From Psammoneis japonica (taxonomy: Eukaryota), in assembly GCA_008632985.1 (NCBI GenBank), contig QPGO01000016.1, forward strand, positions 468,840-532,839: a DNA stretch of 64,000 nt, given 5' to 3'. Made by a program: the position numbers and the translations under genes. Positions 4,259 through 54,140 of the stretch are shown piece by piece; position 1 is the stretch's first letter, and each line of letters opens with the position of its first letter. A model generated the notes under the pieces. The model worked only from the letters and a program-made list of their open reading frames with translations, made no database searches and had not been told where the DNA came from.

Positions 4259-4603
4259 GGTTGCGTAAAGGTAATTTCAACAGCAACGGGATCAAGGAAG
4301 GAGTGGTATTGACCGTTTCTTTTATCTATGTAGTTTCACCGATGAAATCACCGCCTCTATGATGTTGATATCAATGCCGTCACTCACCGAGTTGGACTCG
4401 ATCGTCGTGTCAACAAAGAAGGTGGGATGACACAGCAACAACAACTCCCTCCAACAACCTACACGATTTCTACGTAGTTTACGTACTGGAGGGTATCTTT
4501 CCACTTCAGCCAGCTAAGCCAGGAACTGGAATCAGGAATCTGGAAAGTCTTGTTTACTGTGAGTTCCTTGTCTCCGTGTTCAAAGTTTTTGTGCCGTAGT
4601 CTA

Positions 4604-6204
4604 CAGTGCTGTTTGATGCGAGCGACAAATGTCCACGAGGAAACCCCGTGTCATTTGGCTGGTGCAGAAATGGATCATGCATGATGGGCTTTCGGCTTTC
4701 CATCATGCTTTTGTCGTGCTTTCAATTTTCACAGTTCACGAAGCAGCGCACTCTCACCACCCCCCATTTGGCAGGCTGAAAGTGTTTGCTTGTGTGCAAA
4801 ACAACCCGATGCAACAACTCTGTGTCATCGTCTCACGAGAGAGAGGGGCATGACAAGGCAGGCTTTGCCACTGTCCTCATTTTCTTCCATGCACAGTGTT
4901 GCAGTGCCAGAGAAAGGGCATGTGCAGCACTTTTTGGGGGGCGGTTGTTGAGAGTGAAACGTTTTTCTCACAGGGGAGATCACACGTGTTTTTGGGGCAC
5001 CGAGTGAAAATGGCATCACACAGTTGGCGCTGACAAAAAAAGTTTTTTGGTGATGGGTGGTGCCTGCGAAAAATGAATCCTCCTTTCTCTCACTTCAAAA
5101 AAGAGTGACAAGGTCATTTTTTGAAGCTCAGCCACCAGCCAACACCGCCAGCGGTGCAAGCAAAGAGCCGCACATTTGTCAGCAGCCTCAGTGCTGAGAA
5201 AGAAAGATGGCCCTCCATTGACAAACAAAGGGGCTCTTTTGACAACTCAACTTCTGGGCAAAAAGCCATGCTGCCACAAAAAGAAAGGAAAGAGAAAATG
5301 AAGAACACAAGAATCCTGGAAACGTTGAGCACTCAGACTGCCAGCTTTTTTGCAAAACAAATTTTGAGCACTCATGTTGCAGAGGATTCATTTGAAAAGA
5401 GACAAGCGGGTGGTGCACAAGGATGTGTCAGATCTCAGCCCTGGCCACTGCATTGCCCATGACGTTTGAGGATGGGGTGCCTTGCAAAGATTTCTTCACA
5501 GATTTTGATGATGGCCTTTCAAGTGGGCCTTCTTGCAGCGTTGACATGCTTCTTGAGCAAGGGGAAAAGCAAGACGTGTCAGTCACCTCCACTCCCCAGG
5601 AGCACAGCAGCGCACTCCAGTGGCACAATGCTGCACAACTCTGTGTTTTCTTCTGCAATGGCATTGAAGGAAAGCGGCATCAGGAGGTTGGTGCACTCCT
5701 CCTGGTTCTCTGGTTTGTTGTGTGCCAAATGCAACAAGTTGTGTGCTTCTGACATTTTTGACTGGAAGGCACAAAAGATGGTGAAAAAGGCACAGAGCAC
5801 TCCCAAAAAGACTGATCAAAGGATCTGCTCAGCTGAAAGAGCAACAAAAAGCTGCGCTTGAAGAACAAGAGCTTTGCAACAAAGTTGTGCCTGCTGCGCA
5901 CTGCCAGGCTCTCCAAAAAAGAAAGTTTTGAAGGAGAAGCTGGATCACACTCACCCTTTCAATTGCCAGGCTTTGGGTGATTTGACCAACATCAATTGGG
6001 AAGCTGTCACCAAGGTGCACCTCTGCCTGTGAGCAACAAAGATGTGATGAGTTGGAAAGTGAGAAAAGAAGCAGAGTGGAGAAAGAAGGAGGTGGGGAGG
6101 CAGAGAGCGGCTGTGGCAGGCTGCTGAGACCCCCAATTTGCAAAGAGATGAGGGCCACATCATGTGTCAGCAGACAATGACACAGCATGGAACAGGACTC
6201 TCTC
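4604..6204. mobile_element. Decayed unclassified repeat/transposon-like block, TpA-free
   Basis: No TA dinucleotide found by eye in 1.6 kb; CA/TG-rich; broken Tyr-free ORFs; same signature as the copia relic. Element class not recognised. Confidence 0.55.
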
Positions 6205-8204: not shown

Positions 8205-9650
8205 CTACACATGTGGGGGGACCAGCACTTTGTGTTTTATGCCCTGACTAGATGAAAAGACCAAATTGTGTCAAACACGTGGATCGTGCAGGAGAAACTC
8301 CATTGCCAATTGAGTGTCAAATGCGCCATTGAGTTGACTCATGCCTCCAATTTTGGCAAAGGCAACATCATAATTATGAACAAGATCATGAAAAGCATGG
8401 AATCTCACAGTGACTCAATGTGCACTTCAGAAAGGCACAAACAAACATTGGGTCCCAGTTTGACACAATCAGACACATGTGCGCAAGTCAGCTTCCATGC
8501 TTGAACAAGTCTGCTCAAAGTCTTGGATCACATTTGTGAAGAGATGAAGTTTTTGCAGTCAAAGGAACACCTGACACCACCTCACAAGAACAACCACCAA
8601 AAAACAGTGCCACACACAGATGTGAGGCCCCATCTGGCCAGTGCAGCCACCCACTCCTGCATTTGATTTGGGTCACTTGGCTGTTTGAGGCACCAGCCCA
8701 CAGCCGCACAACTTGGTTTGAGAGACAAGCTCTTCAGCACAGAGATTGGCTGTGCAGGGTGGGGTGCACCTCTTCTTGGAGAAAAAGTGAAGAACAAGGA
8801 GAAGAGAGCAAGCTTGAACAGCCCTGAGCTGAGCTGTGTGCAACTCTCTCAAACAACAGCCTGCGCCAAGTGCAGCTGATGGTGTGCTGCTGTTTTGTTT
8901 TGCTCCCCTTGTTTCACTTGTGAGTGGCGCACTGAGATTGCCAGTCATCTCAAAATCTTGAAATTTTGGTGGCTGCAAATCATGGTGGTGGGTGTCTGCA
9001 ATGTGCTGCCAGGTGCTGATTCACACCACAGAGGCAGCAACAGCATGCTCGCATGGCCTCATTCAGTGTGGCAGCTCTGAGAGCGGCTCACCTGCAGCGC
9101 ATTTGCAAGCTTGGGGCCCAGGGGGGAGTGGGGGACAGTTTGTTCTGCCTAGAGAGATGGGTTATGAGCTGCCACTGGTGCAGTGCTAAGCAGTGCACCA
9201 GCTTGTTGAAAGAGCGGAGGCGGTGGCGGACTGCGCGCTTGCTGGTGTGGACGACTCACCTGGCGATGTGGGCAGTGTTGGCAACGGCAAGTCATCTGTG
9301 CTCTGGTCATGTGGCAAGGAAAGTGGGCTGCAGAGCAAGATCACCAAAAACTGCCCCCAGCTTTTTTGTCTGGGAAATTTTCCCATTTTGTTGCAAAGCC
9401 CTCCAAGGCTCGTGAGCCAGCTCACACTTGCTTGTGGTCAGAGCGCTGCCCCCCCCCAACAAGTTTGCTGCAGCAGAAAACACAAGCACCCCCTCACAAA
9501 GCAGCATGTGCTTTGCTCTTTTGGCAGAGGTGTGTTTTCAAATTGTCTGGTCAAAATTCTTTTTGTGCGTCACAACTGATTCAAGTGCACTGCATGCAAT
9601 CATCAAAATAAATCTTTGTGCTGACACGTCGTCAGTCGTCAGTCTGCACC
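8205..9650. mobile_element. Decayed unclassified repeat/transposon-like block, TpA/CpG-depleted
   Basis: Only a handful of TA and CG in 1.45 kb, CA/TG excess, no coherent ORF. Confidence 0.5.
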
Positions 9651-22408: not shown

Positions 22409-22924
22409 CGTTCTCTCTCTCTCTTAAAAAAAAAAAACACAACTAAGCCGGTTTTCAGTAGCTTTTCCAATTGTGAATGGTAATATTATGGAACACCCCT
22501 TACAAAGAGAGTCTCAATTACACCGTTGCTGTTATTATTGTCGACAGCTTCGCTTCGATATTATTGTGCCCGTGGTCTTGGAGGGAGTTTTGCTGCGAAG
22601 AACAATGAGACGTTGATGAAGTCATCTGATTTGCTCATCTTTATGTCTGTATGTTGCATTAGAGAAATTGCGAGGGAAAACTTATAGACACCTACAAAGT
22701 TAAAGATTTTCATAAGAATGAAGTTACTCAGAAAATGTAGAAGTGGTTATCGTGAACAAAATTTCCAAATCCAATGAATGAGTAGAAATGTACGGTGATT
22801 GTACCGGTCCAACGGAAGGAATCACTCAGTACAAAATTTGTGTAGAAACGTGTTGTACAGACAGACGATTTTTGGAGCCAAAGCCGGCCGTTTCGCGCGC
22901 TTTTTTCGCATCCGCAAAACACGG

Positions 22925-23267
22925 CCCGCCGACAGAACGACATGGCGACCATGGCGACGGACTCTTCTCAAGAACACAAATATGAGGCAATTCTCTACGA
23001 TTGTAATATTGTCAATGTGGTGGAAGGAACCATCATGCCCAACAAGTGCATTGTGATTGGCAGAAATGGAAAAATTGAGCACATTTGCGACACGGACGAA
23101 CGGGACATGTTTCTGGAACAACTCTGCCACGCACTGTGCTGGATTGCAAGAATGCATACGTCATGCCCGGTCTGATTGATTGTCATGTTCATGCCACGGC
23201 CTTTACGGCAAGTTTTGCATTGTTGGCCAAGACGGCTCCATCGAACGTGATGGCTCGCCGGCTTTGA
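22925..23267 (+). pseudogene. Truncated, frameshifted duplicate of the 5' end of the amidohydrolase gene at 25009
   Basis: Aligns to 24988-25318 at roughly 90% identity, 2-bp insertion near 23123, ends at the TpA-free block. Confidence 0.9.
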
Positions 23268-24860
23268 TCCTGGACCAAGAGCGATGAGCGGCACATGTCT
23301 CGCCATGACGGAAGCTCCAGCGCATTGCCAACAATGTGCAGCAGATGTTGCTGGCAAGCATGAGATGCCAAGAGTTGAGCTTCATCCTTGTGGCCAACCC
23401 GGGAAATGAGGGCAACCCGTCTGTGTCTCCCCCTTGCCCTGACCCCGAACCGGGCTGGAGACAGACGGGTGAGACGAAGTTGGGGTCGGGTTTTGTTTGG
23501 GGCTGGCCAAGTTCAAAATGACCAAATTTGCAGCAGGAGCCTGAGAGCCTTCTCAAAGCCCTTTTGCGTGCCTGAAGTGACCAAGGATGCCAGCGACATG
23601 ACCCTCATTTTCCTGCCATCAAGCTTCTTCCTGAGATGAAGTTCTTTTCTTGGCGTCACTCTGCACAGAAACACATGAACCCAGTTGTCTCTGTGGTCAC
23701 AAAGTTGTCAACACAACCAGGCTCTCAATTGCCCCCCCCCCCTGTCAGGAGCTTTTTTGTGCACAGTTGCTGCACTCTTTTTGCACAAAACTGGAAGCTG
23801 AGTCATCCCCATTTTCCTCAACTGATTTTTGGGGTTCTGTTGTCAATGAAATCCATCACAGGGACAGGAAAGTTGGCAGCGCACATCTCTCTCCTTGGAG
23901 CCACACAAAACAGACCTCTCTGCAGCACGCGCACCTTTCCTCATGCGCCAAGACAACAGACTCAACTTGCAAAAATGCAGGCTATCCTCACCCTGTGACT
24001 GTCAATCACCATCAACTCCAAATCATCCAAAGAAACACCTTTTTTCAGCTGTGAACTTCCTCAAAAAAGCCAGCAGCATTGCTGGCCTCTTTTTCTCTGC
24101 ATGCCCTCATTGAGGCGCTTGTCACTGTCAGATGGCAGCCATTGCAAAGGTTGAGAAGTGGGCCCACATGCGCCTTGATTTTTCCTGGCTTGCTTGGAAT
24201 CATGAGCACCCAGATGGCTGCAAATGAAATGTTTTTGGACAGCTCATCTTTCCACTTGTTGAGGTTGCTTGTGCGCACACGGCACATGGACCACACCAAG
24301 GTGGCTGTGGCGACGTGCAAGAGACGTTTTGACTGTGTGTTCCCTCCAATGTCTTCTTGAAAATGTCGTCATTGACAGCGTTCCAGTCAAGATTGGTGGC
24401 AGCAGCATGGGTTCCTTTGCTGAGGATGTCACTTTCCTTTGGCCCAGCCCAGCATCTCGCTGCCAGGCCCAGGGGTGCAGTGTGACATGCTTGTGTTGGT
24501 TTCCTTCACACCAGCCTTTGAATTGTTCAAAAGCATGAAAAAGTCCATCCACATGCACTGGGCCATCCTCAAATCGGTGGCTTCCTCTGAGTTTGACAAA
24601 ACAACCAATTGAGCCATTGACCACATTGTTCAAAGTCTTTGGTGTGGACAAACAGCAGCAAAAAGCCCAAGAACTTTGTGGGCATGTCCTTCTCCTCTCT
24701 GATGAGAATGGCAAATGTGACAATGTTCATCATTGAAAATTCAAATTTCAATCTCAGCTCCATGTCACACACACACAACGAGACACAGCCGTCCAGCGAA
24801 GCGTCCAATTTTGCGGGAAGGAACGCCTGAAAGAGGACTCAGGGGAGGGGAACAAAAACG
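23268..24860. mobile_element. Decayed unclassified insertion, TpA-depleted, between the two amidohydrolase 5' copies
   Basis: One TA found (23983) in ~1.6 kb; broken minus-strand ORFs; structured end at 23409-23490. Confidence 0.55.
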
Positions 24861-25008
24861 AATGGAATGCGGTAATGTACGACAATTATTATTAGGCGGG
24901 GGTGCTTTTATCCCCATGACGACCCCGCCCCGATCGATCGACGACGCACGACGACGACTCGCTAGACTCTGATAACACAACACACAACCCGCCGACAGAA
25001 CAGCGACC

Positions 25009-26288
25009 ATGGCGACGGACTCTTCTCAACAAGCGCACAAATATGAGGCAATTCTCTATGATTGTAATATTGTCAATGTGGCGGAAGGAAACATCATTCC
25101 CAAAAAGTGCATTGTGATTGGTGTAGATGGAAAAATTGAGCACATTTGCGACTCGGACGAAAGAGACATGTTTCTGGAACAACTGCCCCGTATTGTGATG
25201 GATTGCAAGAATGCCTACGTCATGCCCGGTCTAATTGATTGTCATGTTCATGTCACGGCCTTTACGGCAAGTTTTGCGTTATTGGCCAAGACGGCTCCGT
25301 CATACGTGACGGCTCGTGCGATTGAAACATTGAAAGAAATGTTGAATCGAGGCTTTACCACGGTTCGTGATGCCGGTGGAGCCGATCATGGATTGGCAAG
25401 AGCTGTCGAAGAAGGACTCGTGGTGGGACCGAGATTGTTGTTTTGTGGCAAAGCTTTGAGTCAGACGGGTGGTCATGGTGACATGCGACTTGCCGGAGAC
25501 GATTCTTCTGTGGAATGTTGCGGATGCATTGCGTTGGGCCGTGTGTGTGACGGCGATGCACAAGTACGAAAGGCAGCTCGTGATGAAATACGCAAGGGTG
25601 CGACTCACATCAAGGTCATGGCGGGAGGAGGAGTCAGTTCTCCCACGGATCGAATCACATCGACACAATTTTCTGTAGAGGAATTGACAGCCATTGTACA
25701 AGAAGCAACGGCGGCCAATGTGTACGTCATGGCCATGCCTATACGCCTCGTGCAATAATCAATGCAACTCGGGCGGGTGTCAAGAGTATTGAACACGGAA
25801 ACTTGTTGGACGAGGAATCGGCCGAAATCATGGCTCAACACGAAACCTATCTTGTGCCTACACTCGCAACGTATGATGTTCTTGCACAAGAAGGATTAAA
25901 AGAGGGTCTCACGCAAGACAATGTCAACAAGGTTGCCGCCGTACGAGACGCGGGGAAACGATCGATTGGTATTGCACAACAGGCCGGTATAGTCATGTGT
26001 TTTGGAACCGACTGATTGGCTGGCATGCAACGACATCAATTGAGAGGGTTTCGCCTGTTGGAGGAAGCGGGCATGTCGGCGCCAGACGTTCTTCGGACAG
26101 CCACTTGCAATGCCGCGCGATTATTGAATATGGAGGGGGAGATTGGAGCCAATGCAGAAGGAGCCAATGCAGACATTGTTGTTTTGGCCAAGAATCCACT
26201 CTTGTCGATGGAGGTATTTGATGATTGGAAGGAGAACTGTGTCGCAATACTAAAGGGCGGCCGAATACATTACTCACAAAGCGATTGA
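25009..26288 (+). CDS. Metal-dependent amidohydrolase (Xaa-Pro dipeptidase-like subgroup); 1-bp frameshift ~25735 and in-frame TGA 26013-26015
   Basis: MPGLIDCHVH, GFTTVRDAGG, LSQTGGHGD, IKVMAGGGVSSP, (AHAY), SIEHGN, GTD, ADIVVL..NPL. Confidence 0.9.
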
Positions 26289-26587: not shown

Positions 26588-26622
<35 letters not shown>

Positions 26623-36503: not shown

Positions 36504-36619
36504 ATACTGCTGGCACACTACTAAAAGAAATAGTCTCTCCTAATGCGATGAGCACGAGAAAACATGAGTGGAAAAGGGGGAATCCGGTGGCTTCAGCACG
36601 TTACTCGTAGAATCCCAAT

Positions 36620-37600
36620 CCCGATGCAAGCTCTGCAGCACCCTTGGAACAAGACAACCCCGCCTTTGTGAATTTCGTCAACAAGAACGAGGCCATGTGG
36701 GAAAAGCCAAGAACAGTGGATGGTGGCACTGCATTCTTTGCTCCCAATGACAAGGCATTTGCAGAGTTTGCTGGGACAGAAGAATGATGGGAACACGTGC
36801 ACAAATGCACACTGTGAGTGGCCACAAACCAAAACCCTGTTTTTCAACATTTCTTCTACACCAATTTTGTGCAAATGCAACATGCACAATCTCCTGCAGA
36901 AGTGCATGAGAAGTTTGTGTGTGGCGCACAAGCATTTGGTGATCCTCATGTGTCAAAAACAAGTGAGTGGGCACAAAATGATCAAAGCATGCACCCCCTG
37001 TCTGTGCATCCCCGAAGAATGCAAGTGCAAAAAGTTTGTGGAGGCCATGCCACTGTGCAAGAGTTCATGGAGTGCAGGCACAAGAATTTTGCAGAGAGTT
37101 CCAGAAAACCTGCTCAGGAAACTTCGCAATCTCCCCAGGAATGCAAGTGCAAGAGAAGTTTGTGAGGTGTGGACAGAAAGCCGCATGAGAAAGTGGAAGG
37201 GTCTCTGTTGGCTGAAGTTTGTGCTGGGGTGGGGGGAGCACCGTCTCTGCATTGCATTTTTGAACAACTTTGGACATCCACCACATTCTTGGCACTCCTC
37301 AAATGAGCCCCAAACCAGCCCAGTCATCCTGAAAATGACAACCTGCAGACATCCTGCACAAACTTGGCATCAAAACAAGCTCCCCATTTGCAACCTCTCT
37401 TTTGCAGACAGCAACCCCAGCAAAGCTGAGTGCTGTGCCAAGAACACCATGTCACCATCAAGCAACTAAAATGTTGAAACGTGTGGGTGATCAAATTGAA
37501 AAAATGCAGCGCAGCAATGCACCAGGGCAACATCTGTTGTGAGTGGGTCATTGTTGGTGGTGCACTTTTGTGCAACTCTTCTCTGTCCCCACCAGCTGAG
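36620..37600 (+). mobile_element. Decayed TpA/CpG-depleted block containing a broken ORF of unknown family
   Basis: Long frame interrupted only by TGA stops; almost no TA. Confidence 0.45.
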
Positions 37601-37609
37601 GAGAATGCT

Positions 37610-38397
37610 GCACTTGGCACCTTTGAAAATCTAGCACCTTTCAAAAAAAATGATCAAAAAGTCAGCACCACCTTTGTTCATTTCCACCACTTTTTAAAAA
37701 TGATCTAAAAAACCCCCAGCACCTTTCTTGAAAACACAGCACCTCCTTGCAAGTCTGCAAACGCAGTCATTTTTTCCACATGTGTTTGTTGAAAACACCT
37801 GAGTTGAGCCATGGTTTTTGGCTTTGCTGAGCAGTGCATCATTTGTGGGAAAAACACCCATGAGCACTTGCACTCGCTGTGTGAACACTGCCGAGACAAT
37901 GACACAAATGCCATTTGTTGAGTGCAGCAATGCAGGCAGTCTGGCACCTGAGTCTCTTTGCAGTTTGTCAACCATGGTTCATGAGAAAAATTCTGCAATC
38001 AGTGTTGGCAATGTTGTGCTGAAGTGTTTTTGTTGTTTCGCAATGTGGCGGAGGGGCCCCGCACTTGTTGCTCACTGCAAAATGCACGGCTCGCACCCTG
38101 AGAGGGGCCTGCTGTCTGCACAGGAAGAACGACCCACCCACTGTGAACAACAACATGACAATGGCACAAATGCTGTTCATCGAATGCAGGAGAGGTGGCC
38201 CAATGTCTAAGTTGCAACCACCTCCGCTCTGTGGGCACCACCATCAACACATTGTGCGTGGCCAGCAGCATCTTCCCTCTCATGGGCGGATCGCTCTCAG
38301 TTTTTTCTGTTGGGGTGCTGAGCACAGGCGATGGCCTCGGAATTTGTCACAATGCAGAATTGTTAAAGGTGCTGGAAATTCTAAAAGGTGCCAGTGC
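37610..38397. mobile_element. Non-autonomous DNA-transposon-like element with ~35-bp degenerate TIRs
   Basis: 37610 GCACTTGGCACCTTTGAAAATCTAGCACCTTTCAA vs reverse complement of 38363-38397 GCACTGGCACCTTTTAGAATTTCCAGCACCTTTAA; reiterated AGCACCTTT subterminal motif. Confidence 0.65.
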
Positions 38398-38723
38398 TTA
38401 AAAAGTACAAATTTGTCGATTGAGGATGACTCCTCACTAAAAATGACACAGGGGCCGGCAGACGAGCAGCGCTTAGATAGTCCGTGCGTCCGTCCATGGA
38501 CGCTCAACGGATCAACGGATCAACGGACTATTGGGCATGATACGGAGCATGATGCATGATGGCAATGAGCAAGGAATGATGATACACCTGACTCGACGGT
38601 GAAGCTTACTCGTGCCTGAAGTCCTTTATGCAGTATAAGAACACATGTCATGGATGGCCGTAAAGTGGATTTTGAATTGTTGATTGTCCAGACGTCGAAA
38701 ACAAGCGAGAGCGAGAGACCATC

Positions 38724-39746: not shown

Positions 39747-40262
39747 ATATTGTGGCTCCCGTGTAATCAATATAGGAGCATGTGATGAGAAAAGCTACGT
39801 CAATAACCAGAAATTTTGTATCTCTACCGCAAGCTACAATCGAGCCTGATGCGGCACGCGGGATGATCACTTTTCGCGGGAATAGACAGACGGCAGGTAC
39901 TCTCAACAGAATATAATGAAGGACAGAGCTGGCTAGTCTACGGTACAATTCTCGGTAGTAACAGAAGCACGGAGCATGTACTGTACGGTAAGTTCACGAT
40001 GCAAGTGCACAAATTTTCAGCACATTATCTATCTGAGTGATAGGACTTTTAGCATTCCAAAGTTCTGGTACTGGTATGCGTTTTGGTGAAAAACCTCAGC
40101 TTTCCTGTTGTAGTTTTCTTCATACCTCACGCGTCCTCGATCAAATCTGCACTTTGTCCACTTTAAGTCCTACAGTCCCTCTGCGGGCTCATGACATCCT
40201 AGATCCAAGAAAATTGCAAGTGGCTTCAAAGCAAACTTGCCCTCTAGATCATCTTCTCCCAC

Positions 40263-41258: not shown

Positions 41259-41779
41259 CTCTCTTTGCAATGCCTACGAGAGAGCCTGTTCTGTGCAAAT
41301 GCGGTCACTTGCAACGACGCCATTGGCTACGATTTGTTAACACTGTCGATTAGCGTTCTCAAATAATAGACTTCGCATCCCTTTCCCGTAGGTTATGAGC
41401 CTAAGAGTCACTCTTGGGTTTGTTGACCAATGTTCCAGTTTTTGACTGCATCAAAGAGACCGCCATTGTGGTGGAATTGAGAAGAGTCTGACTGTTGGAT
41501 CAATGGCATCTGGCCATCCTCATCCTGCAATGGTGTGACAATGGGACATGACAGAGAACACCAACAAACCACAATGAGTGTTCTCTCACATTTGCGCTTG
41601 GCTCGGTTTCCTCAAAAAACAACGAGATGATTCTCAAATCTTCTCACTTGTTTCAGGCACTGAGCTCCAGTGAGTTGGTGGTTGCAATGGTCTCATCTTC
41701 AACATGGTCCTCCATGCCTCATGCAGCCTCAGCATGCATTTTGGCACAGGTTGCAACACACTCCTGCAAGGCCAGTCTC

Positions 41780-44700
41780 CAGCCGGCTTGCCAGGCCCGC
41801 TTTCACAGCAGCTTTTTGAATGAGCTGTTTGTGCCGCTCAAAAGTTTGATGCAAAGGCACTTGACATTGATGTGGCAGATGCATCAACTGCTCAACACTC
41901 TCTCACTTGCTTCACTCCAGTGACACTCCACTCCGACTGTCCTCTGGCAGGCTGCATTTTTTGTCCTTGATTCCTCACACCACTGCACTGACAGAAAATT
42001 CAAAGCCCAGACAACCAGCAGCATGCTGTCATCTGACCAAGTTAGTTTGGCCTTGGTTGAGCTCTCAATGCTGGCTGAGCTTCTGCTTGGGGCAGAGAGT
42101 GAACACACACCAGCCCCTTGCCCAGAGATGCACAGACAATCCCACATGGGGTGCTTTTTTCTGTGCAATCCCTTCAAACTGTGAAGAATGCATCAGCCTG
42201 CCATTGGGCAGCTGCATGATCATCTTTGTCCACTTTAGAGTGATCATCAGATCTTGGCTGTCACACAGACACCAGATGCAGTGTGTGGGCAATGCAATCC
42301 TTTTTGTGACAAATTTGACTTTGCCATCTTCTGAGAAGTCTGTGGTCATCCTCCTGAGGCAATTGTGGACCTTTTTTCAACAATGGATGGCAACAAGAGT
42401 TTTGTTCCTGTGTGTGTCATTGTTCATCCCAGCAATGTTTTCCAAGACTTCCTGTTCTGGGTGTGTGAGAAAGCTTTGGGTCATCCACATGATGCCACAT
42501 GATGGTGCATGTCAGCTGCCAGAGTCATGGTTTTGTTCCCCATGCAGCAGCTGCAGGGGTTCACCTTGAATCCCATGTTGTTGCAGAGGAATGAAGACAG
42601 GTTCTTCCAGAGCAGCTGGGCTCCTTGCAGAGCTTCTCAGAGCCCCTTCAATCTGTGCACAGTGTGGGGACATTGGCGCACACTTGCAACTCTTCTTTGG
42701 GTGCACTCTGCAGAGCAATTTGGCCATCTCACCTTCTGATCACATGTGTGGGCCAGCTCATCCATGTCTGATTGCATGAACACTCCAGAGGAATGTTGAC
42801 CACCATGACCTTTCTTCCCTCTTGTGTGTTGACCACTGAGTCTCATGGCAGGTGTCAATGTCTCTTTCTTGGTCTTGTGCTGGCACTGTTGTCTTGTTCC
42901 AGCCATCAGCATGCCCTCAACCCCTTTGGCAATGCACCATGCTTCTGCTTGAGGCACACAAGGCACAACACAGGGTGTTTTCTGTCACTTTGTGATGCCC
43001 TCAGTGAACATGGGCTGCACATGTCTGTGGTTGAACTGCTTTGTTTCCTTTGCAACTGCATCAGCTTCAGCCCTCCAAAGAGTGTCTTGAGGCCTTCAGT
43101 GCAGACAACTGCTCTTTGAGGAATGCTGCAGTGCTCCCATTTGGATCTTTGAAGTGCTGAGCTGCTGTCTGCCCAGCTCTCTCTGTCACATCTGTGACTG
43201 CAACATCTTTCCTTTTAATCTTGGAGGTTGCAGACATGACCTCCTCATTGCTTGTGGTTCACATGCTTGGCCAGGTTCAGGCTCTTCTTGTTGTGCTCAT
43301 CACACCACCGCTGGAACCCAAGAAGTCAGAGTCATGTGTTTTGCTTGTTGGTCCAGTGTGGGGAACCATCATCTCACCCAATTCATTGTCTGATGCACCA
43401 TTGCAATCAGCAGATGGTTGTCTGGGAAAAATGGTTGTCTGGGAAAAATGTTTGGCATGTCATCTCCTTGGTCAGGTGAATCATCAAATTCTTTGTCTTG
43501 CTGGTCTCTGTCATCTGAGCCACTGTCTGAGACTGGTTGGCCAAATTTTTAGTTGGGGGCTCTGTGCTTGCAATGTCAGATGTGTCCCAGGTTTTATGGC
43601 CACTCCTGCACTGGCACCATTTGCTTCCACAGTGGTGCCTCATCTCACTCTTTTGTTTCAGGTGCACATTCTTGGACAGCTGGCATTGTCAACAATGGGC
43701 TGTGACTGTCATCATCATTGCCAGAATCCTGACATTGGGGGGTCACAATTGCCAGCATTGTTGTCAGTCTCACACCCAGCAACACTGCAGCACTGTGGCA
43801 GAGGCATCACAAGGAGCTGAGTTTTGTGTTCAGAGTCATGGTCATTGTTCACATGGCCAGGGTGTCAGGTGGCTTGTGGCCACAGCAGTTGGCAAAGGCA
43901 AGGTTCATGGCATTTTTTGCTTGGCTCTGTTTTTTTTAACCTTTCAGATGATGTGAACAGGCACAGGCACATCTGTCCAGTGACTGTGCCTGGTGCACTT
44001 CCCTGTGGCAAAAGGGACAGCACAAAGTGGTGCTGGCATTTTGTTTGCATTCCCGGTGGGGCTGAGGCATGCAGCTCCCATGGTGTGGGGGTGCATGTTG
44101 CTGTTTCACATGCCTCACAATGCACTTGAGCACAGCTGCCAAGTTCAAGGCAGAAATGCTTTTTTCAGTCAGCACATTGGCCTGTGAGAATGTGATGTGG
44201 CAAAAGGTCACCAGCAGCAATGTCAACATGTGTGTGGGAGGGCATTGTGCCAGGCCAGAAGACCATCGCATTGAAAACAAGCCACACAATGACCAGCCAT
44301 GGTTCTGTGCAGAAGGGGAAAAGTTGTGCATGCTTTCCACCTGATCTTTGACTGTGCGCATGTGTTGCTCAATGTCTGCAACACATGTCTGTCCTTGACA
44401 CATGGGTTGAACAACATGCCTGGCACCAGCTCTTGCAGGATCTTGAGTTCAGTCAGGGTCAGCCTGGTGGTCTCCACCTGGAGCCCTTGGCACACTCATG
44501 CACAACAAGGGCAGCCTTCTGCACCACAGTGACAGCACTGGCCCATCAGCTGGTCAGGGAGGCCACTGAGCTGAAGCACAGGACCTGAAATGAGGTGACA
44601 AAGAAGATGATGTTGTGATGAATGCGACATCAATTGATGGGGTGAGCTTGCCATGTGCCTTCAGCACAGCCAACAGGATGCCATCATGAATGCTGATGAA

Positions 44701-45650
44701 AGGGATGCCACATGACAGACAGTTTTGCCCATGAGCGCTCCTGTGCCAAGTCCAAAGATGTGTTGGGCATTGGCCATGTTGTGTCGGGTGACTGGGAAAT
44801 TGGCAGTTGGCTCTTGTAAACGAGGCACTTTGCTTTTCACGGGAATGGACAGACTGCCACTGCTCTAAGACAGAATGAAGAACAGAGCTGGTTGGCCAGT
44901 CTACGGTGCAATCCTCGCAGGAACAAAAGCATGAAACATGTGCGGCAAGTTCAAGGTGCAAGTGCACAAACAAGAGGTGTCCCATTTTTGGCATGTTGGC
45001 AATCTCAGTCATGGGAATTTTGCCAGCATCTGTCATCATTTCTTGATTGCCAAGATTTCCTGTTGCATTTTTCTTTGCACCACACAGGCAACGAGACGTC
45101 CTTCATCAAATCTGCCTTTTCATTCACTCTAAGTCATAGAACCTCTGCGGGCTTGCTGAGGTTCTCAATGGCCACCAGCAGCAGAAACTTGAGATGACAT
45201 GCATTTTCTGTTGACAGAGTTACAGCATTGGCTGACAATTTGAACACGGCAACCTCAAATTCTTTCCAATTCGATTTCACTGCTGAGGACAACATGTCGA
45301 ATGACACCACAGATTTCAGCATCTGAACTTTTGACATGTCCCTCTTGCATTTCAACTGAATCTCCACAATTGGATCCTTTTTTTGTTGCGCCACTGCAAT
45401 GTCAATCAAAAGGCAGATTTTGGGAGCTGGAGCGCTTCCACATCTTCCTCCGTGGCAGCGAGAAGCGATGCTTTGGTGTCGCAGCCCGCTGTCAGCAGCT
45501 TCCCAGCAACTTCTTCCTTTTTCCTCCCTGCGCCGATTGATGAGAGAAAGTCAGAAAGAGCAGCCTCATCCCATTCATCACTCTGAATGCCGGGGACAGG
45601 CAGAGGGGCAGGCAAAGCCACAGCCATTGTTCATCCACCCGCATGATGCC
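41780..45650 (-). mobile_element. Decayed Ty1/copia (CoDi-like) LTR retrotransposon internal region: gag-like, integrase, RT, RNase H
   Basis: Minus strand remnants IDVAFI and VADIEQHMRTVKDQV (integrase), GFKVNPC..C..NKT and HVDDPKLSH (RT), WQADAFFTV, KQKL..SSTKAKL..DDSM, HINVKC (RNase H) in copia order; LTRs not identified. Confidence 0.88.
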
Positions 45651-45804
45651 AAAAACCAAAATGAAAATCGCTCTTCACTCTGCCTGCTCTTCACGCACAC
45701 GCGTCCACGCATCTGTCCATTGCATTGGAAGACTCCAGATTTCTTTGTGACCACTTTTTCTCTCGGTTTGAGACCTTTGTTGTGACTCTGTTTGATTCGT
45801 TTTA

Positions 45805-46165
45805 GAAAAAAAGGTTGTGACAACCTTTGGAACAATTGAAAAGGTTGTGTGACACAACAGCCATTTTTGACTTGGCTGAAAAGGCCTCGAGAGACAACCT
45901 TTTTGACCCTTGCTTGAGGAAAGAAAGACACTCCTGCTGCAACAGTGTGTTGTGGTAAAGTTTTTGACCCATCTGAAAAGGTTGTGTGACAACCTTTTTT
46001 GAATCACTTGAAAAAAGGTTCCAACAAGAGAACTTTTTTGAGTGTTTTTGAGTTTGTTGTGGCAACCTTTTTGACCTTGCGATGCAACCTCCTCTTTTGA
46101 CTCTTGCTTGAAAAGGCTGCAGCAACTTTTTCAACTCACTTGAAAAGGTTGCAACAGCCTCTTTG
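45805..46165. repeat. Cluster of short inverted motifs AAAAGGTTG / CAACCTTTT
   Basis: Repeated hairpin-like units e.g. 45808 AAAAAAGGTTGTGACAACCTTT, 45975 GAAAAGGTTGTGTGACAACCTTTTTT, 46141 TGAAAAGGTTGCAAC. Confidence 0.75.
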
Positions 46166-46262
46166 CAGGAGACATGGAGCACAAGGCTTTTTTGATTTTC
46201 TTGGCAAAGAGGAGGGTGTGCAACAGCTTTTGCTCATCCCAAGGCAATTGCAGACCTTTCCT

Positions 46263-47300
46263 CAATGAATGGCAACAGGAGTTTTGTTCCCAGCATGCTT
46301 GTTGTTGATCAACTCAGTGGTGCATTTGCCAAGACTTCCTGCCCCACATGTGAGATGCCTTTGGGTCTTCCACACACAGCATGATGGAGCATCAGTTGGC
46401 AGTCAAGCAAGGTTTTGTTCACCATGCACCAGCCACAGGGGCTCACCTTGAATCCCATGTCATTGCAAAGGGAACAAAAATGGGCTCTTCTTCCAGAACA
46501 GCTCTGGGCCCCTCTTGCAAAACTTTTGGAGCCCCTTTTTCAGCTGTGCACAAAGTGAGAGCTTGCCCTTTTTGCTCAGCATGCACTTGCAACTCTTTTT
46601 TGGGTGGCAATTTTTTGGCCATCTTGCCTTTTGGTTGCATGTGTGTGCCAGCTCATCCACATCTGAGAGCACGGATGCTCCCCAGAAATGTTTTGACCAT
46701 CATGACCTTTCTTGTCTCTTGTGCTGTGTTGATTGCCAAGGAGAGAAGCAATGCGTGATTGCTCATGAAGGGTGAGAATGTCCAATCCTTGGCCTCACAC
46801 AGGCACTGTGTTCTTCTGTCCACCATTGCACCCTTTTGACCCTTGGCGGTGCACCGCACTTCTGCTTGAGACACACACAAGGCACAGCACAGGGTGTTTT
46901 TCTTCTGTCACCTGGTGGCGGTGATGCCCTCAGCAAGCATGAGCCAGATCACATCCCTGTGGTCAAGCTGTTTTTTATTTCCTTCACAGCTGCATCAGCA
47001 AGGCCCTCCCAAGAATGTCTTGAGACACCTTTCCTTGCAGACATCTGCTCTGTGAGGAACAGCACACTCCAGCTTGGATCTTTGTGAAGTGCCAAGTTCC
47101 CTGCCCAGTTCTTTCTGCCATGTCTGTGGCTGTGGTCCATCTCCTTTGAATCTTGGAGTTTGCACGCATGATCGTGTTGCTTCTTGTGGCCCATGTGCTT
47201 GACCAGAGGTTTGAGCTCTTGTTGGGTTCATCACTGTGCTGGGACTCAAGCCAGAGCCATGCTCTGGGTCTGCCAGTGTGAACACAGCTCACAAGATTGC
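46263..47300 (-). mobile_element. Second diverged copia RT fragment, paralogous to 42380-43370
   Basis: Colinear similarity to the first copy throughout (e.g. TCACCTTGAATCCCATGT, TTCTGCTTGAG.CACACA); CVEDPKASH motif. Confidence 0.85.
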
Positions 47301-48721
47301 CAGCAATGCAGCATTTGCTGGCAAACAAAAAATTGTTGCTGGCATGCATCGGCTGTCTTGGGTTGTTGTCACTTGTTCCCTCCATTTCTGGCATTTTACC
47401 TGCAACATGCACCACCAGCAAATTCATTCCCCACTTGCCAGTGTGATGATTTTCTCCTGTTCCCCTCTGCTGGCAATGTGCCACTCATCTGGATCACCAC
47501 CTTCCTGTTGCCCCCTGCAACAAGTTTGTGACCTGCTTCCTCATTTCCCCCTTGCCTGCAATGCCCACTCATGATGCTTTTTGGCCTTTCTGCCAAAATG
47601 CTCACAATTCATGAAATCAATGTTTCTTCTACATTGTCATTCCAAAATGCAGACATGGGCACATGGCTCAAGTTGAACATGGGATTGTTTGCAACAGCAG
47701 CAACCATTTAACACCAAATGCAAGAATCACCTGGAGAACATGTCAAAACCTTGTTGTGATCACAAGAGGCATGGGTCCTGAAGCAAGGCATCTTCATTCA
47801 ATGCCTCCAATCATCATCCAAACTTTTCACTCAATTTCTTTCTTTCTTCTGCATCCAACACAACAGCAAATGTTTTGAAGGTCTCAAGCAGAACAAGTTG
47901 TGCTGGTGCCCATCATGTCTTGGATGACACATTTGACAAAGATGAGGTGGAAAGGCACAAGCTCTTTCTTTGGCAGTGTTTTCTGTGTCAAAAACAAAAA
48001 GCAAGCATGGCAATCCTTGTTTGTCAAAATCATTTGTGACAACTCAATGTCTGCGTCAAACCATCCAAAAGTTTCAATCAATCATGGCTCAAACACCACC
48101 CTCTGTGACTAAATGAGACAATCCTGTGGGCAGTCTTCAAGTGTCAAAAATTTGTTTGAGTTCCTGAGGAGCCACAAGCAGTTGGACCTTGGATCCTGTG
48201 AACATGCCAGCTCTGACCAAATTGACATGGAGCATGGCTTAAATGGTTCATTCCATGTTTCTAAGATTGGGGTCAAACTGTAGAAAATGCCACCAGTGAC
48301 AGGCAAATGATGACAGCTGGCCAGAACCCTTCTGTCTGACACCCATTTTCATCATTTTGCATGCGCAGAATGATGCACAGGAGATGTCTGACACATGAAA
48401 GGACATTGAACATGAGCCACAGCAAGAGTCAGCAAAGACAATTGGCAACATTGAAGCCTGAAAGCAGGGCTGAACCGGAGCTTGGTGTGCACCGGCAGCT
48501 CTCTCTGCACAAGCCTCTCCAAGTGCTAGAAATCATTGCTGCAACAATGAGAGCAGATTTGTCAATGAGCTGGTGTAGACCAGTGCTGTCAAAGGCCAAT
48601 TGTGACTGGGAGCCACATGCCATGACCTCAAGGAGATGCAACATGCCACAACAGATTGAACCAGCAAACTCAAGTGTGCTGAGAAAACACTCACATCAAT
48701 GTCCATTCTCTGCTGGGCATG

Positions 48722-50980
48722 CAGTGGACCCCAGGTGACACTTTTTCAGAGCTGCAGTCAAGAGTTGCAAGTCCACCCTGGCTAAGCTGTGGCATCATGT
48801 TGTTTTACACAAAGCCAAAGTTGAGACTTGAAAACTCAACTCTGCAGTGGAAGGACACCATGAATGCTCCTGACAACCCAACAACTGCAGTTTCAAGGCA
48901 CTGAGGGTCTTTGGTGGACCCCAGGTGACACTTTAAGAGACATGGTTGAGAGTTGAGAGGCCACCCTGGCTCAGCTCTGGCCTCATGTCACTTAAAAAAA
49001 AGCCACAAGAGGCGAGACTTGAAACCCCAAGTCCACAGTGAAGGGACACCATGAACGCTCCTGCCAACCCAACAACTGCAGTCACAAGGCATTGAGGGTC
49101 TTCAGTGGACCCCAGGCAACACTTTTAAGAACTGTGGTTGAGAGTTGCAAAGCCACCCTAGATGGGTTGTCACCCCATCTCACTTCACACAAAACCAAGG
49201 GTGAGACTTGAAACCACACCTCCGCAGAGTGAAGGGACATCATGAGTGCACCTGACAACCCAACAACTGCTGTCCAAAGGCATTGAGGGTCTTCAACAGA
49301 CCCCTGGCAATGCTTTTAGAACAATGGTCAAGAGTTGCAAGGCCAGCCTGGCTCAGTGTTGCCCCATGTCACTCTACACAAAACCATGGGTGAGACTTGA
49401 AATCCCAACTCTGCAGTGAAGGGACACCATGAGTGCACCTGACAACCCAACAACTGCAGTTTAAAGGCACTGAGTGTCTTTGGCAGACCCCAGGTGACAC
49501 TGTTGGAGCACAGTCAAGAGCTAAAAGGCCAGACTGGCTCAGCTGTTGCCCCATGTCACTTCACACAAAATCAAGGGTGAGACTTGAAGTCTCAACTGTG
49601 CAGTGAAGGGACACCATGGGTGCACCCAACAACCCAACAGCTGCAGTCCAAAGGCATTGAGTGTCTTCATCAGACCCCTGGTGACATGTTTTGAGCCATG
49701 GTCAAGATTTGCAAGGCCAGCCTGGCTCAGCTGTTGCCCCATGTCACTTCACACAAAACCAAGGGTGAGACTTGAAATCCCAACTCTGCAGTGAAGGGAC
49801 ACCATGAAGAGTGCATCTGACAACCCAACAACTGCAGTCCAAAGGCATTGAGTGTCTTCCGCAGACCCCCAGCAACATTTTTAGAGCCATGGTCAAGACT
49901 TGCAAGGCCAGCCTGGCTCAGCTGTTGCCCCATGTCACTTCACACAAAACCAAGGGTGAGACTTGAAAGCCCAACTCTGCAGTGTGAAGGGACACCATGA
50001 AGAGCGCATCTGACAACCCAACAACTGCAGTCCAAAGGCATTGAGTGTCTTCAGCAGACCCCTGGCAACACGTTTAGAGCCATGGTCAAGAGTTGCAAGG
50101 CCAGCCTGGCTCAGCTGTTGCCCTGTGTCACTTCACACAAAACCAAGGGTGAGACTTGAAACCCCAACTCTGCAGTGAAGGCACACCATGAATGCACCTG
50201 ACAACCCAACAACTGCAGTCCAAAGGCATTGACATTGAGAGTCTTTGGCAGACCCCAGACAACACTTTAAGATCTGTGGTCAAGATTTGCAAGGCCACCC
50301 TGGCTCAGCTGTGGCCTCATGTCTCTTTCACACCATGCCAAGGACAAGGAGACCTGAAATCCGCCCAAGTCCACAGTGTGAGGACACCATCATGAGTGCA
50401 CCTGCCAACCCAACAACTGCAGTCTAAAAGCATTGAGGGTCTTTGGTCAACCCCAGGTGACATTTTGAGAGCCATTGTCAAGAGTTGCAAGGCCACCGTG
50501 GCTCAGCTGTTGCCCCATGTTACTTCACAAAAAGCCAAGGGTGAGACTTGAACCCCAGTCATTTTGCAGTGATGGGACGCCATTGGTGCACATGCCATCT
50601 CAACAACTGCAGTCCAAAGGCAGTGTTGAGAGTCTTTGGGGAAACCCATTTGACACTTTTAGAGCCATGGTGATGATTTGCAAAGCAACCCCGGCTGAGC
50701 TGTGGCCTCATGTCACTTCACACAAAGCCAAGGGTGAGACTTGAACCCCAATCATTTCACAGTGAAGGGACACCATGAGTGCACCACCAACATGACAACT
50801 GCAGTTGAAGAGCATTGAGTGTCTTTGGTGGATCCCAGGTGACACCTTAAGAGCTGTGGGCAAGATCCACAAGGCTGCCCTGGCTCAGCTGTGGCCTCCT
50901 GTCAGTTCCTCCCACACAGAGAGCCAAGGGTGAGACTTGTTGAGCCCCAATTCTGCAGTGAAGCAACACCATGAATGCAC
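48722..50980. repeat. Tandem satellite, ~12 diverged units of ~187-198 bp
   Basis: Anchor GACCCC recurs at 48727, 48917, 49108, 49299, 49486, 49673, 49864, 50057, 50251 and degenerately ~50449, ~50642, ~50831; shared CCAAGGGTGAGACTTGAAA and CAACCCAACAACTGCAGT blocks. Confidence 0.95.
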
Positions 50981-51204
50981 GCACCTTTGTTTGCTCTGGC
51001 ATTTGAAAAATCAAGCAAGACAGTGTCTGCTGCCAACTTGCAGTGGTTGGAGACTGTGCGCAATGGGGCCACTGCACCACAAGATCAAACTTCCTTGCAA
51101 TGCTCAGCCACAATTCTCCAAGTCTTGCTTGGGGCCCTCCAGACAAGAAGTCTGCTCCTCCTGTCTGGACAAGGCAATGCACACAACACCACAGCATCAA
51201 ACTT

Positions 51205-51780
51205 GAAGTGCTGCTCAATCACAGCTCTTAAAGTCTCTCCTGGGGTCCACCAGAGACATTCAATGCCCCCCTCAGCTTTTGCTGCTGTCAGGTCTTCTGG
51301 CATCATCAGCGGGGATCTCTGCACTCTGGAGCTGGGAAAGTCATGCCCGTTGCTCCTGTTGGAGGGGACAAGGTGGCAACACCACCAGATCAATCAAGCC
51401 TGCTGCCACAGGGAACAAGAAGGTGAGAACAACAACACCTGGTCAATGTTGCAATGCCCAGCGACATCTCTCAAAGTGTCGCCTGATGTTTGTCAGATGC
51501 TGCCAGTGTCCTCAGCTTGCAACTGGTGTTCAGTTGGTTGGCACTGTCATTTTGCCCTTTCACTGTGGAGTTGGAATGCTCCAGCCTGCTCTCCTCCTCC
51601 TGCTGGGACAATGTGACATGGGACCACAACCACATGACAGGCGTCTTGCACTGCTCAGCCATGGTTGTTGCTGTGTCACCTGGGATCCACATGATGCCAC
51701 CAATGCCCTCAGCTTTCTGTTGTCACATTGGTTGGTGCCATCACAGGCTCCTTTCATTCTGGAGTTGGGAGTTTAAAGTT
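51205..51780. repeat. Inverted, more diverged copies (~3) of the satellite unit
   Basis: 51220 CACAGCTCTTAAAGTCTCTCCTGGGGTCCACCAGAGACATTCAATGC is the reverse complement of the unit core; further copies near 51465 and 51670. Confidence 0.75.
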
Positions 51781-51799
51781 TGAAGTGCTGTGCTTGTGA

Positions 51800-54140
51800 C
51801 TGAGGCAGAGGGTGCAAGAAGACAGGCAGCACCAGAGCTGCACAAAACACCAGCCTTGTTGCTGATGAGCATGCAGCAGCCACAAATGTTCTTGTTGTGC
51901 ACATGTGGAATGGCTGCAAAGATCTGCTGCCACAATGGCAGTCCACAAGACAACAAAAAAAACACAAACATGAAAATTTCATTCTTGACAAGAGCTGGCA
52001 GAGATCACAAAAACTGAGAGACATCAACAATCTTCATCAAAAACAAACATGCCACATCACATTGAAACAATGCTCAATGGCCAGCTCTGCCAAACTCACA
52101 AGCAAAGTGCTGCATCAGAAATGATGAACAAAATGACTTATTTTCAAGTTGATTCAAATGATTTGAAACTTTGAAAATGGACACAACAAAAGCATTTTTT
52201 TACAAAATTGTCGCTTGCAAAATGATGCAGGACTGTGGCAAAAAAGCAAATCTGCACCACTCAAAACAAAACACTCAAGTGCTTTTGTCTCTCTCTCTCT
52301 GCACTCATGCTGGATTTCTGCTCCAGACAGTGGCATGACAATGATGCATGAGGTGATGCAAACATGCAACAATGAATGAGGGTTGCATGCAACAGAGAGA
52401 ACTCTGCTGCCGGTGGCTGCATCATGGACAGGAACAGAGGCGCGCTGTGATGACATGATGTGTTGCCAAATGTGGTCCTTTGGGCTGGCTACAATGGTGG
52501 CTTGGAGCACAGAGACAATTCAATGAAAATTTCAAAATGCTGCACAATTGATGAAGAAAGCATGCATTTGAAAAACATCCAAGAAACTGTGGCAATGAAT
52601 GACAACATTTCTTTGAATGACAAATGCACAACTGCTGAGTTGAACATCACAATGTTTGCACTTGGTTGATTTTACATGAACTTGCACTGTGAGCACAGAG
52701 TGCTGAAACAGCAATGGTGTTTCAAACATTGTGTGAGAAAAATGGTCATGCACTCAAATTGCCAGCAAAGGTGACAATGAAAACAACACAAAGACAGCAA
52801 CAACATGGACAACACAAAGCAAGACAACATTGACAGGTGAGCATGACACATGCAATGTGATTGTGCATGATGTTGTCATGAACATGACAGCATGGTGTTG
52901 TTGTTCCAGAATGGCAGAAGTTTTCTCACATTCCATCATGTTTCATGCTGTCATTTTCCATGCTGTCATTTTCCATGCAGAATGATGAGCAGCTGCACAG
53001 TGCTGCATGCAGAACAACATTGTGAAGTTCGTGCCAATTGTGGAAGCACCCCCAGAACACAGGCAATCTGGAGACGGGCAATGCTCCAGGAGAAGGTGAG
53101 CACAGAGTCTGCATGGTTGGCAGCATGTGGCATGTGTGCTGATCTTTCTCATGCAACCTTGCACAGCATTTCACCATTGAAAGGATTGCAAACCAACAGC
53201 AACACGGTGTGGAGGAGATGGGCAACATGAGTGAAGTGGGAGACTGTGGGATGCTGTGATCAAGATGACTGTGGCAGCTGCTGCCAACACGATGCTGGAA
53301 GAAGCAGAAGCAGTGGATGCAGTGGACAGCAATGCTCTGATGGAAGTGACTGGGATGGACACAGCAGAGCAGGTGGAAACTGCACAAGACAATGGGTGAG
53401 AACACATGGTGGCTTCTGATTGAAATCAGCAGAGTGACAACACAAGGCAATTTACATGGCAACATTGTGACAACAGAACAATGCATGCATTCTCATCACA
53501 CTTGTCAGTTGAACACTGCCATTTGCATTGCTGGCAGGGGAGGGAACAACAGCGGATGGCAATGCGGTCATGCACTGTCACAGGTGTGGGAAGGAACAGG
53601 GTTGGCTGAGCGAGGGTGGCCGCGGATGTCAAATTGCAGGTGACCACCAGCAATGACATTGCAGGTGTGCCAGCAACAGAATGTTGGGTGAAATGACACC
53701 ACATTGCTTGTGACATCATTGTGGTTGTTGCCGGCATCAGGGGAAGCCAGGAACAAGAAAAACACCAAGAATTGGCGCTGCGCGGGCAGCATGCCAGCAC
53801 AATGGATGCGCAGGGGCAACGGGAGCCAGCAACAAGAGCTGCACCAGCAAATGGCACCAGCAGGGTGACATGCCAGGATGACAGCATTTTCACACCAGCA
53901 ACACCAAGTGCGGTTGAGCTGTGGTGCGCGGGCACCCTTGGACCCATCGCTGGCAACCAGCGGTGCCATCATTGTGGATTTTTGGTGCCAGCAAATGCCC
54001 TTTTTTGCTGGCAATCTCGTGAGCTGTGAAGTCATCATCACCCAGTTCATTGTCTGATGCACTGTTGTGATCAGCAGATGGTGGTCTGGGAACAAGGTTT
54101 GGCACATGTCATCTCTGTTATCTGAGCCACTGCCTGAGTA
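51800..54140. mobile_element. Unclassified decayed TpA/CpG-depleted repeat DNA
   Basis: Continuation of the CA/TG-rich block; no recognisable domain. Confidence 0.4.

Follow-up and report, generated by a model that had tools for sequence, protein, structure and literature searches.

Contig QPGO01000016.1 of the Psammoneis japonica genome assembly (GCA_008632985.1) carries, between positions 468,840 and 532,839, ordinary genes interspersed with five blocks of repeat DNA. The initial annotation of this 64,000-nt stretch (hereafter the window, in which all positions are numbered from the first letter) described all five blocks as nearly devoid of the dinucleotide TA, poor in CG and rich in CA and TG. 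It raised the question of whether a second process, besides the decay of methylated CpG, had rewritten these repeats. To answer it, we compared the five blocks (19,125 nt in total) with the remaining 44,875 nt of this single window, using 500-nt windows and pooled dinucleotide counts, and we aligned related copies lying inside and outside the blocks. These comparisons show that, within restricted regions of chromosomal repeat DNA, TpA and CpG have both been turned into CpA/TpG, on the two strands alike.

Dinucleotide composition and borders of the blocks

TA occurs 72 times in the five blocks, which corresponds to an observed/expected ratio (o/e) of 0.06, against 1,779 times in the rest of the window (o/e 0.57). 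CG is found 218 times in the blocks (o/e 0.19) and 2,475 times outside (o/e 0.99). CA (2,223 occurrences) and TG (2,099 occurrences) both reach an o/e of 1.81 in the blocks, compared with 1.18 and 1.17, respectively, outside, so that the composition announced by the initial annotation holds for all five blocks. The fraction of pyrimidine-purine (YR) steps is equal in the two compartments (0.2412 in the blocks and 0.2413 outside), indicating that TA and CG were replaced by CA/TG and not simply avoided. The o/e of 1.81 for CA/TG approximates the background of 1.18 plus the lost CG and TA, and base composition is nearly unchanged, with a GC content of 49% in the blocks and 47% outside.

The extent of the loss is best appreciated in block 5 (41403–54118), for which the outside frequencies predict about 504 TA and about 701 CG in 12,716 nt, where 48 and 101 are found. 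The longest gaps without TA measure 1,603 nt (from 4602 to 6205), 1,020, 980 and 890 nt, for a median gap of 16 nt over the window. Among the 169 500-nt windows located outside the blocks, the lowest o/e values are 0.19 for TA and 0.56 for CG. The depletion is thus confirmed to far exceed chance. The segment 42481–43140, initially counted by eye as having no TA and a single CG, lies inside a TA-free gap extending from 42236 to 43216, and its sole CG is at position 42677.

The borders of the blocks had been described as sharp, and the counts agree: the 300-nt flanks already display a TA o/e of 0.29–0.67 and a CG o/e of 0.45–1.37, the sole exception being the left flank of block 4, which is still part of the depleted zone. 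At block 3, the last ~100–200 nt of the insert on the gene side retain CG and TA. Some long open reading frames without a Pfam family also have mildly low TA (o/e ~0.3) and raised CA/TG, as at 39.0–39.5 and 40.5–41.4 kb beside block 5.

It is position, and not sequence identity, that determines what is mutated, since two repeated sequences were left untouched. The first is a repeat-family fragment of ~330 nt located between genes, which is unmutated although a related copy in block 5 is mutated. The second is a 340-bp duplicated piece of an amidohydrolase gene that directly adjoins block 3; each of the six aligned TA of this duplicate (copy A in Table 1) is also TA in the gene itself (copy B). 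The unmutated fragment sits in the locally TA-richest stretch (39501–40000, TA o/e 0.86 versus a median of 0.56), and the repeat family to which it belongs may have been TA-rich already before conversion.

Conversion in place and its sequence context

Direct evidence for a change of TA comes from the two members of this repeat family. The 18 aligned TA of the outside copy (39860–40200) correspond in the inside copy to TG (seven sites), CA (six), TA (two), GA (two) and AA (one). A shorter alignment, comprising 19 outside TA, gave TG at eight sites, CA at six, GA at two, and TC, AA and TA at one each. Inside block 5, the two repeat copies c1 and c2 (Table 1) present 34 reciprocal CA/TG swaps, as predicted by an independent conversion of ancestral TA or CG in each copy. 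Among the 72 non-overlapping adjacent double differences between c1 and c2, 27 are of the CA/TG type, the next commonest type occurring four times, while the outside density of TA plus CG leads to an estimate of ~44 CA/TG sites in 926 aligned nt. Masking the YR differences, with one token per YR step, improved the match between the outside and inside copies from an E-value of 4e-18 over 149 nt to 9e-46 over 356 nt, and raised the c1/c2 identity from 69% to 76%. Once the changes linked to TA, CG and CA/TG are removed, transitions and transversions become comparable in number (~20 versus 23 in A2 and 93 versus 78 in A3).

The 191-bp satellite of block 5 provides independent information on where the process takes place. 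In the alignment of 12 monomers, seven column pairs are polymorphic for CA/TG with at least two monomers on each side, and every other type of reciprocal double difference is seen at most once. Such a polymorphism among monomers implies that the process acted in place, after amplification, and as a tandem satellite has no RNA or cDNA stage, the process must act on chromosomal DNA. No block favors CA over TG, or the reverse, to any marked degree, as expected if palindromic targets are struck on either strand. In this respect the blocks differ from the products of APOBEC and ADAR, which also inactivate mobile elements by context-specific deamination, but act on cDNA or RNA, in a strand-asymmetric manner and within the limits of retroelements, whereas here a satellite was hit in place and CA and TG are balanced. 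The comparison of paralogues directly supports the existence of a second process, beyond CpG decay, that turns TpA into TpG/CpA in the blocks.

The same comparisons bear on whether the composition could be native, the elements themselves avoiding TA and CG under pressure from a host nuclease or an RNA sensor, or coming from a foreign source. Vertebrate RNA viruses do suppress CpG and UpA, but nothing here supports such a reading for the blocks. Their pattern is common to unrelated sequences, including a non-coding satellite; the family member outside the blocks keeps its TA; the reciprocal CA/TG differences between copies need an ancestral TA or CG; and the YR total is conserved. We consequently regard a native composition as very improbable.

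The losses depend on the neighboring bases. RTAY tetramers (ATAT, ATAC/GTAT and GTAC) are entirely missing from the blocks, against 504 outside, while the other TA tetramers are retained at 0.53 (TTAA), 0.32 (CTAA/TTAG) and 0.11 (CTAG). When the most depleted 14,855 nt are sorted by the 5' base, TA retention is 0.02 for ATA, 0.035 for GTA, 0.11 for CTA and 0.22 for TTA, and CG retention is 0.04 for TCG, 0.09 for ACG, 0.11 for CCG and 0.24 for GCG. The order of loss is thus ATA>GTA>CTA>TTA for the TpA arm of the process and TCG>ACG>CCG>GCG for its CpG arm. A strand-wise product model fits the TA tetramers and five of the six mixed CG tetramers, ACGC/GCGT being off by two-fold. The most enriched CA context in the blocks is CCAG/CTGG (2.5-fold).

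The two arms can be told apart. In the sub-regions that retain CG (3,659 nt, consisting of block edges and 44.6–45.9 kb), the TA o/e is 0.03 for a CG o/e of 0.48, and in the outside/inside pair 5 of 10 CG survive versus 2 of 18 TA. As TA is erased where half of the CG persists, the two losses are separable; the TpA arm, the more complete and uniform of the two, does not depend entirely on the CpG arm.

The initial annotation had also considered that modified bases in the blocks might be misread, in which case reads would show TA at these sites; on such a reading the true sequence would still have TA and CG. The contigs of a public DNA run (X1) reproduce the TA-free sequence, with the limit that X1 is possibly the source of the assembly itself, its library type not being on record and the data coming from one sample of one study. 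X1 contains 97% of the sampled words of 38501–48500, and its contigs of 5,649, 7,327 and 2,446 nt match 35001–38179, 38210–45530 and 45532–47977 with 0, 3 and 2 other letters, respectively. These contigs run from normal genes into the TA-free blocks 4 and 5, the first one from the gene at 35001 into block 4 up to 38179, and the longest X1 record reaches 315,122 nt. Contigs so long and clean require accurate reads, and noisy ones would not assemble in this way. In addition, misreading of a palindromic TA or CG would yield CA on one strand and TG on the other, and not one fixed, interleaved choice per site; that neighboring satellite monomers differ in this fixed choice identifies it as heritable sequence.

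The assembly and X1 are nevertheless not letter-identical at some CG sites, a point in favor of misreading. The single-copy part of block 5 differs from X1 at four places, three of which (43032, 45816 and 47529) oppose TG in the window to CG in the contigs at their full depth and could reflect either allelic CpG decay or residual consensus errors. On balance a sequencing artefact appears very unlikely, and both an artefact and a native composition are largely excluded. Loose ends of X1 contigs carrying CG and TA were considered as unmutated copies and rejected, as they are merely the flanks of other copies. A second run, X2, yielded contigs covering the genes at 35.0–36.4 and 38.6–41.3 kb and leaving out most of blocks 4 and 5, which was not taken as silence of the blocks. 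One of its contigs skips 76 nt (35063–35140) with GT..AG ends, like a spliced transcript, and X2 is probably an RNA library, though not recorded as such; no run listed as RNA contains the sampled words.

Candidate mechanisms and known systems

We consider it likely that old non-coding repeats underwent transitions in place, at specific dinucleotides and within restricted regions, and enzymatic deamination in silenced chromatin is the best candidate for the process. The targets would be the two self-complementary YR steps, TpA becoming CpA/TpG (A:T to G:C) and CpG becoming TpG/CpA (C:G to T:A), with both strands affected about equally and nothing else strongly altered. One or several enzymes tethered to the chromatin of silenced repeats would deaminate adenine to hypoxanthine at 5'-T-A, with a 3' preference T>C>G>A, and cytosine or 5-methylcytosine (5mC) at CpG would likewise be deaminated, with T>A>C>G as the order of preferred 5' bases. 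Such a process would inactivate repeats irreversibly, much as fungal repeat-induced point mutation (RIP) does, by removal of TAA/TAG and Tyr codons, TATA and AATAAA signals, and TA/TTAA insertion sites. The enzyme, its tie to silencing or methylation, and the choice between a defence and a by-product are matters on which we infer from the sequence.

Deamination is favored by three considerations: a TA transition rate ~30-fold above background, as estimated from a TA survival of 5–10% against an overall divergence of ~25%, the 5'-T needed by tRNA adenosine deaminases, and the TCG preference. TadA and ADAT2/3 convert A to G in tRNA and need a 5' U/T (U33-A34), and the ADAT2/3 of Trypanosoma can also deaminate C in DNA. 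Together with the adenine base editors developed from them, these enzymes thus share with the blocks an A>G change with a 5' T, and they differ by their natural substrates, which are tRNA; we know of no natural enzyme of the TadA/ADAT fold that edits genomic DNA adenines. The excess of A:T>G:C is confined to TpA, which fits a TadA/ADAT-like enzyme but is unspecific, since on the other strand such a change reads as T>C at TpA. The initial annotation had proposed A->G (equivalently T->C) at TpA in silenced repeats: the conversion itself stands, on the paralogues and on its action in place, whereas adenine deamination and silencing are its presumed cause and setting. A more specific proposal, that some diatoms possess a RIP-like defence in which a natural DNA adenine deaminase acts at T-A in silenced repeats, beside a cytosine deaminase preferring TCG, is possible but should be held tentatively. 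The first enzyme would amount to an adenine base editor of natural origin, and the two would jointly strip whatever DNA becomes silenced of both self-complementary YpR dinucleotides.

Several points weigh against enzymatic rewriting. The evidence comes from one 64-kb window, and to our knowledge no natural DNA adenine deaminase has been described. In the two-copy alignments, the direction of change is read from base composition together with the reciprocal CA/TG differences, and not from an outgroup. Evidence for strand coherence is mixed: a runs test on c1/c2 found 10 runs versus 17 expected, a value reached or undercut by 0.8% of shuffles, while the CA/TG labels along the blocks are unclustered (z from -0.63 to +1.76 in eight segments), and those of the satellite show more runs than expected (z +3.09). 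Finally, the copies are old, with a transversion divergence of 8–10%, and a slow, passive, context-biased mutation could reach the same end state.

This last point corresponds to a regional bias in late-replicating or repair-poor heterochromatin, where polymerase errors or a biased mismatch or base-excision repair would slowly exhaust TpA and methyl-CpG. The age of the copies would leave time for such a decay, independent single-site events would give unclustered CA/TG labels, and the three TG/CG differences between the window and X1 suggest that CpG decay is ongoing. An analogue exists in very-short-patch repair, reportedly responsible for the depletion of CTAG in Escherichia coli, which turns TA into CA/TG when T:G mismatches are corrected to C:G and leaves an excess of CCAG/CTGG, as also seen in the blocks. 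However, that system is genome-wide, weak and directed at a single tetramer, whereas the blocks lose CG and do not have CTAG as their most depleted TA context, keeping it at 0.11 versus 0 for ATAT, ATAC and GTAC. If T:G were repaired to C:G with the strength needed to erase TA, CpG should be protected; as CG is lost, such a bias alone is insufficient. In addition, the passive process would have to attain the estimated ~30-fold excess of TA transitions, and TCG is the most depleted CG context, whereas the signature of spontaneous 5mC deamination is weakest at TCG. We therefore regard a passive regional bias as rather unlikely.

A different chemistry can be envisaged in which a dioxygenase of the TET/JBP type oxidises 5-methylpyrimidines at YpR steps in repeats. 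Conversion of T to 5-hydroxymethyluracil or 5-formyluracil, which mispair with G, would give T>C, and conversion of 5mC to 5-formylcytosine, which mispairs with A, would give C>T. One class of enzymes would then cover both arms, as in each target a 5-methylpyrimidine can be seen to precede the base with which it pairs, and both arms consist of strand-symmetric transitions. Against this stand the complete loss of TA where half of the CG survives, and the unlike ranking of 5' bases in the TpA arm (A>G>C>T) and the CpG arm (T>A>C>G), which argues against a single mode of recognition. Oxidation is on these grounds improbable, and deamination remains our preferred reading.

Among the systems already described, RIP of ascomycetes, which depends on RID/DNMT4, has in common with the blocks an irreversible transition hypermutation confined to repeats, specific for a dinucleotide, affecting both strands and with sharp borders. 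RIP changes CpA to TpA, thereby creating TA and raising the AT content. The blocks are unlike its products: their TA is erased (o/e 0.06, so that C>T at CpA creating TpA is not seen), their CA/TG is enriched, their AT content is not raised (GC 49% versus 47%) and A:T to G:C changes are present. As to duplication as a trigger, the 340-bp duplicate beside block 3, 88% identical to its source, is unmutated, although it is possibly too short or too diverged. Genes related to RID, named DNMT4 and of unknown function, were reported in 31 of 60 diatom species by a study that describes no RIP-like mutation (Hoguin et al. 2023, PMC9998398).

The decay of 5mC at CpG in the transposons of vertebrates, Cryptococcus and others resembles the CpG arm, with CG turned into TG/CA in repeats and neighboring genes at a CG o/e of ~1. 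The blocks have the CG o/e of 0.19 and the CA/TG excess that such decay would leave, in addition to the three TG/CG differences between the window and X1. CpG decay leaves TA untouched, whereas the blocks have lost TA to a greater extent than CG, and also where CG persists. The order TCG>ACG>CCG>GCG also differs from that of spontaneous 5mC decay, for which TCG is the weakest context. The statement that neither 5mC decay nor fungal RIP explains the loss of TpA is hence upheld, TA being gone where CG persists, and destroyed instead of created. A preference for TpCpG is said to characterise a hypermutation of transposons in Pucciniomycotina (Microbotryum), which is RIP-like with C>T at CG in repeats. 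The blocks display the same preference, TCG having the lowest retention of the four CG contexts (0.04), but that process is fungal and is not known to erase TpA.

Full-text literature searches, whose coverage leaves out most subscription journals and supplements, returned no description of TpA erasure in repeats, and a repeat-directed mutation process erasing TA as well as CG is apparently undescribed. If it proves genome-wide, repeat-directed hypermutation, so far described in fungi, would gain its first example elsewhere and its first known case of a drive from A:T to G:C in DNA. The chance that the underlying chemistry is of an entirely new kind is substantial; a genome-wide process would point to a new enzyme activity on genomic adenine or thymine, of interest for base editing. 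It would also represent a new permanent silencing of mobile DNA, through the loss of codons, signals and insertion sites, and provide a candidate role for the RID-related DNMT4 genes of diatoms. In practical terms, transposon annotation based on homology will miss such blocks, which a scan of TA, CG, CA and TG would find, and recovering the repeat families would need a "de-mutation" step analogous to deRIP.

Content of the blocks and of the window

The features discussed above are listed in Table 1. By blastn, none of blocks 1–4 has a match in another of the blocks, block 5 included, and the result is the same after masking all YR differences. All that can be said is that the blocks are old non-coding repeat DNA, made of satellite, dispersed fragments and unclassified inserts. 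Of the identities first assigned to them, the satellite and the mutual unrelatedness are supported, the latter by blastn, whereas the labels "copia" and "TIR element" (terminal inverted repeat element) find no support in protein homology.

No Pfam family was found at E≤0.01 in the 104 (60 + 44) stop-to-stop open reading frames (ORFs) of at least 80 aa in the blocks. Long ORFs are expected there by chance, because TAA and TAG are missing. A scan of short ORFs covered 107 of the 109 ORFs of 45–79 aa in block 5 (two at satellite or block edges were omitted, and the 65 of blocks 1–4 lay outside the scan) and gave 13 weak Pfam matches, all below the curated cut-offs, including RVP_2 with an E-value of 0.014. 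Regular expressions for reverse transcriptase, integrase, protease, RNase H and gag motifs returned a single CCHC-like match, in block 2. A long terminal repeat/copia identity is thus unsupported, as reverse transcriptase, integrase, protease and gag domains were not found in the block ORFs by Pfam or by motifs. For three block ORFs no relatives were found in large protein libraries, one of the three having been searched exhaustively, and c1/c2 lack codon periodicity. The inverted matches turned up by the search for terminal inverted repeats were all short and non-collinear, scans for Rfam families and tRNAs were negative, and a 23-nt motif of the satellite had no match in a scan of metagenomes.

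Table 1. Positions in the window of the depleted blocks, repeat copies and duplicated gene fragments
Feature	Position	Strand	Remarks
Block 1	4603..6204		0 TA in 1,602 nt, CG-poor; left 600 nt retain about half their CG
Block 2	8376..9608		3 TA and 18 CG in 1,233 nt
Copy A, duplicated 5' portion of the amidohydrolase gene	22915..23257	+	unmutated, TA and CG kept
Block 3	23258..24872		1 TA in ~1.6 kb; insert (1.7 kb) between two 340-bp gene-fragment copies
Copy B, same fragment, start of the Amidohydro_1 gene	24978..25316	+	88% identical to copy A
Block 4	36609..38207		TA-depleted, CG-poor
Unmutated paralogue of 44830–45156	39867..40192	+	intergenic, outside the blocks; 18–19 TA kept
Block 5	41403..54118		48 TA and 101 CG in 12,716 nt
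Repeat copy c1	42349..43337	+	non-coding; direct-orientation partner of c2
Mutated dispersed-repeat fragment	44830..45156	+	within a CG-retaining sub-region
Repeat copy c2	46234..47262	+	74% identity to c1
Stretch with many relatives in run X1	47713..48600		as many as 19 contigs over a position (likeness ≥80%)
191-bp satellite, 11.8 copies	48727..50980	+	7 column pairs polymorphic CA/TG
Inverted satellite monomers, about three	51214..51776	-	just beyond the array end
Right edge of block 5	53540..54118		0 TA, CG o/e 0.40

Block 5 further contains two pairs of dispersed fragments (43369–43437 with 54032–54101, and 47283–47355 with 54028–53954). The inverted monomers at 51214–51776 make the satellite array end in a large imperfect palindrome. 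Neither copy of the long direct duplication bracketing block 3 is hypermutated.

The genes between the blocks are ordinary eukaryotic ones, encoding among others an aldo/keto reductase, an SDR protein, an amidohydrolase, RED and TANGO2; those relatives of the RED protein that carry a name come from diatoms, with 30–36% identity. Within this eukaryotic neighborhood, a long ORF on the minus strand (16173–17612) has a bacterial-type extracellular solute-binding domain (SBP_bac_1, E-value 1.4e-07). Long ORFs of 271–653 aa without a Pfam family at E≤0.001 are located at 17560–21715, 29103–30107, 31783–35131, 38676–41270 and 56537–57802. The ORF of the aldo/keto reductase includes a perfect (TGT)11 microsatellite at 26588–26621.

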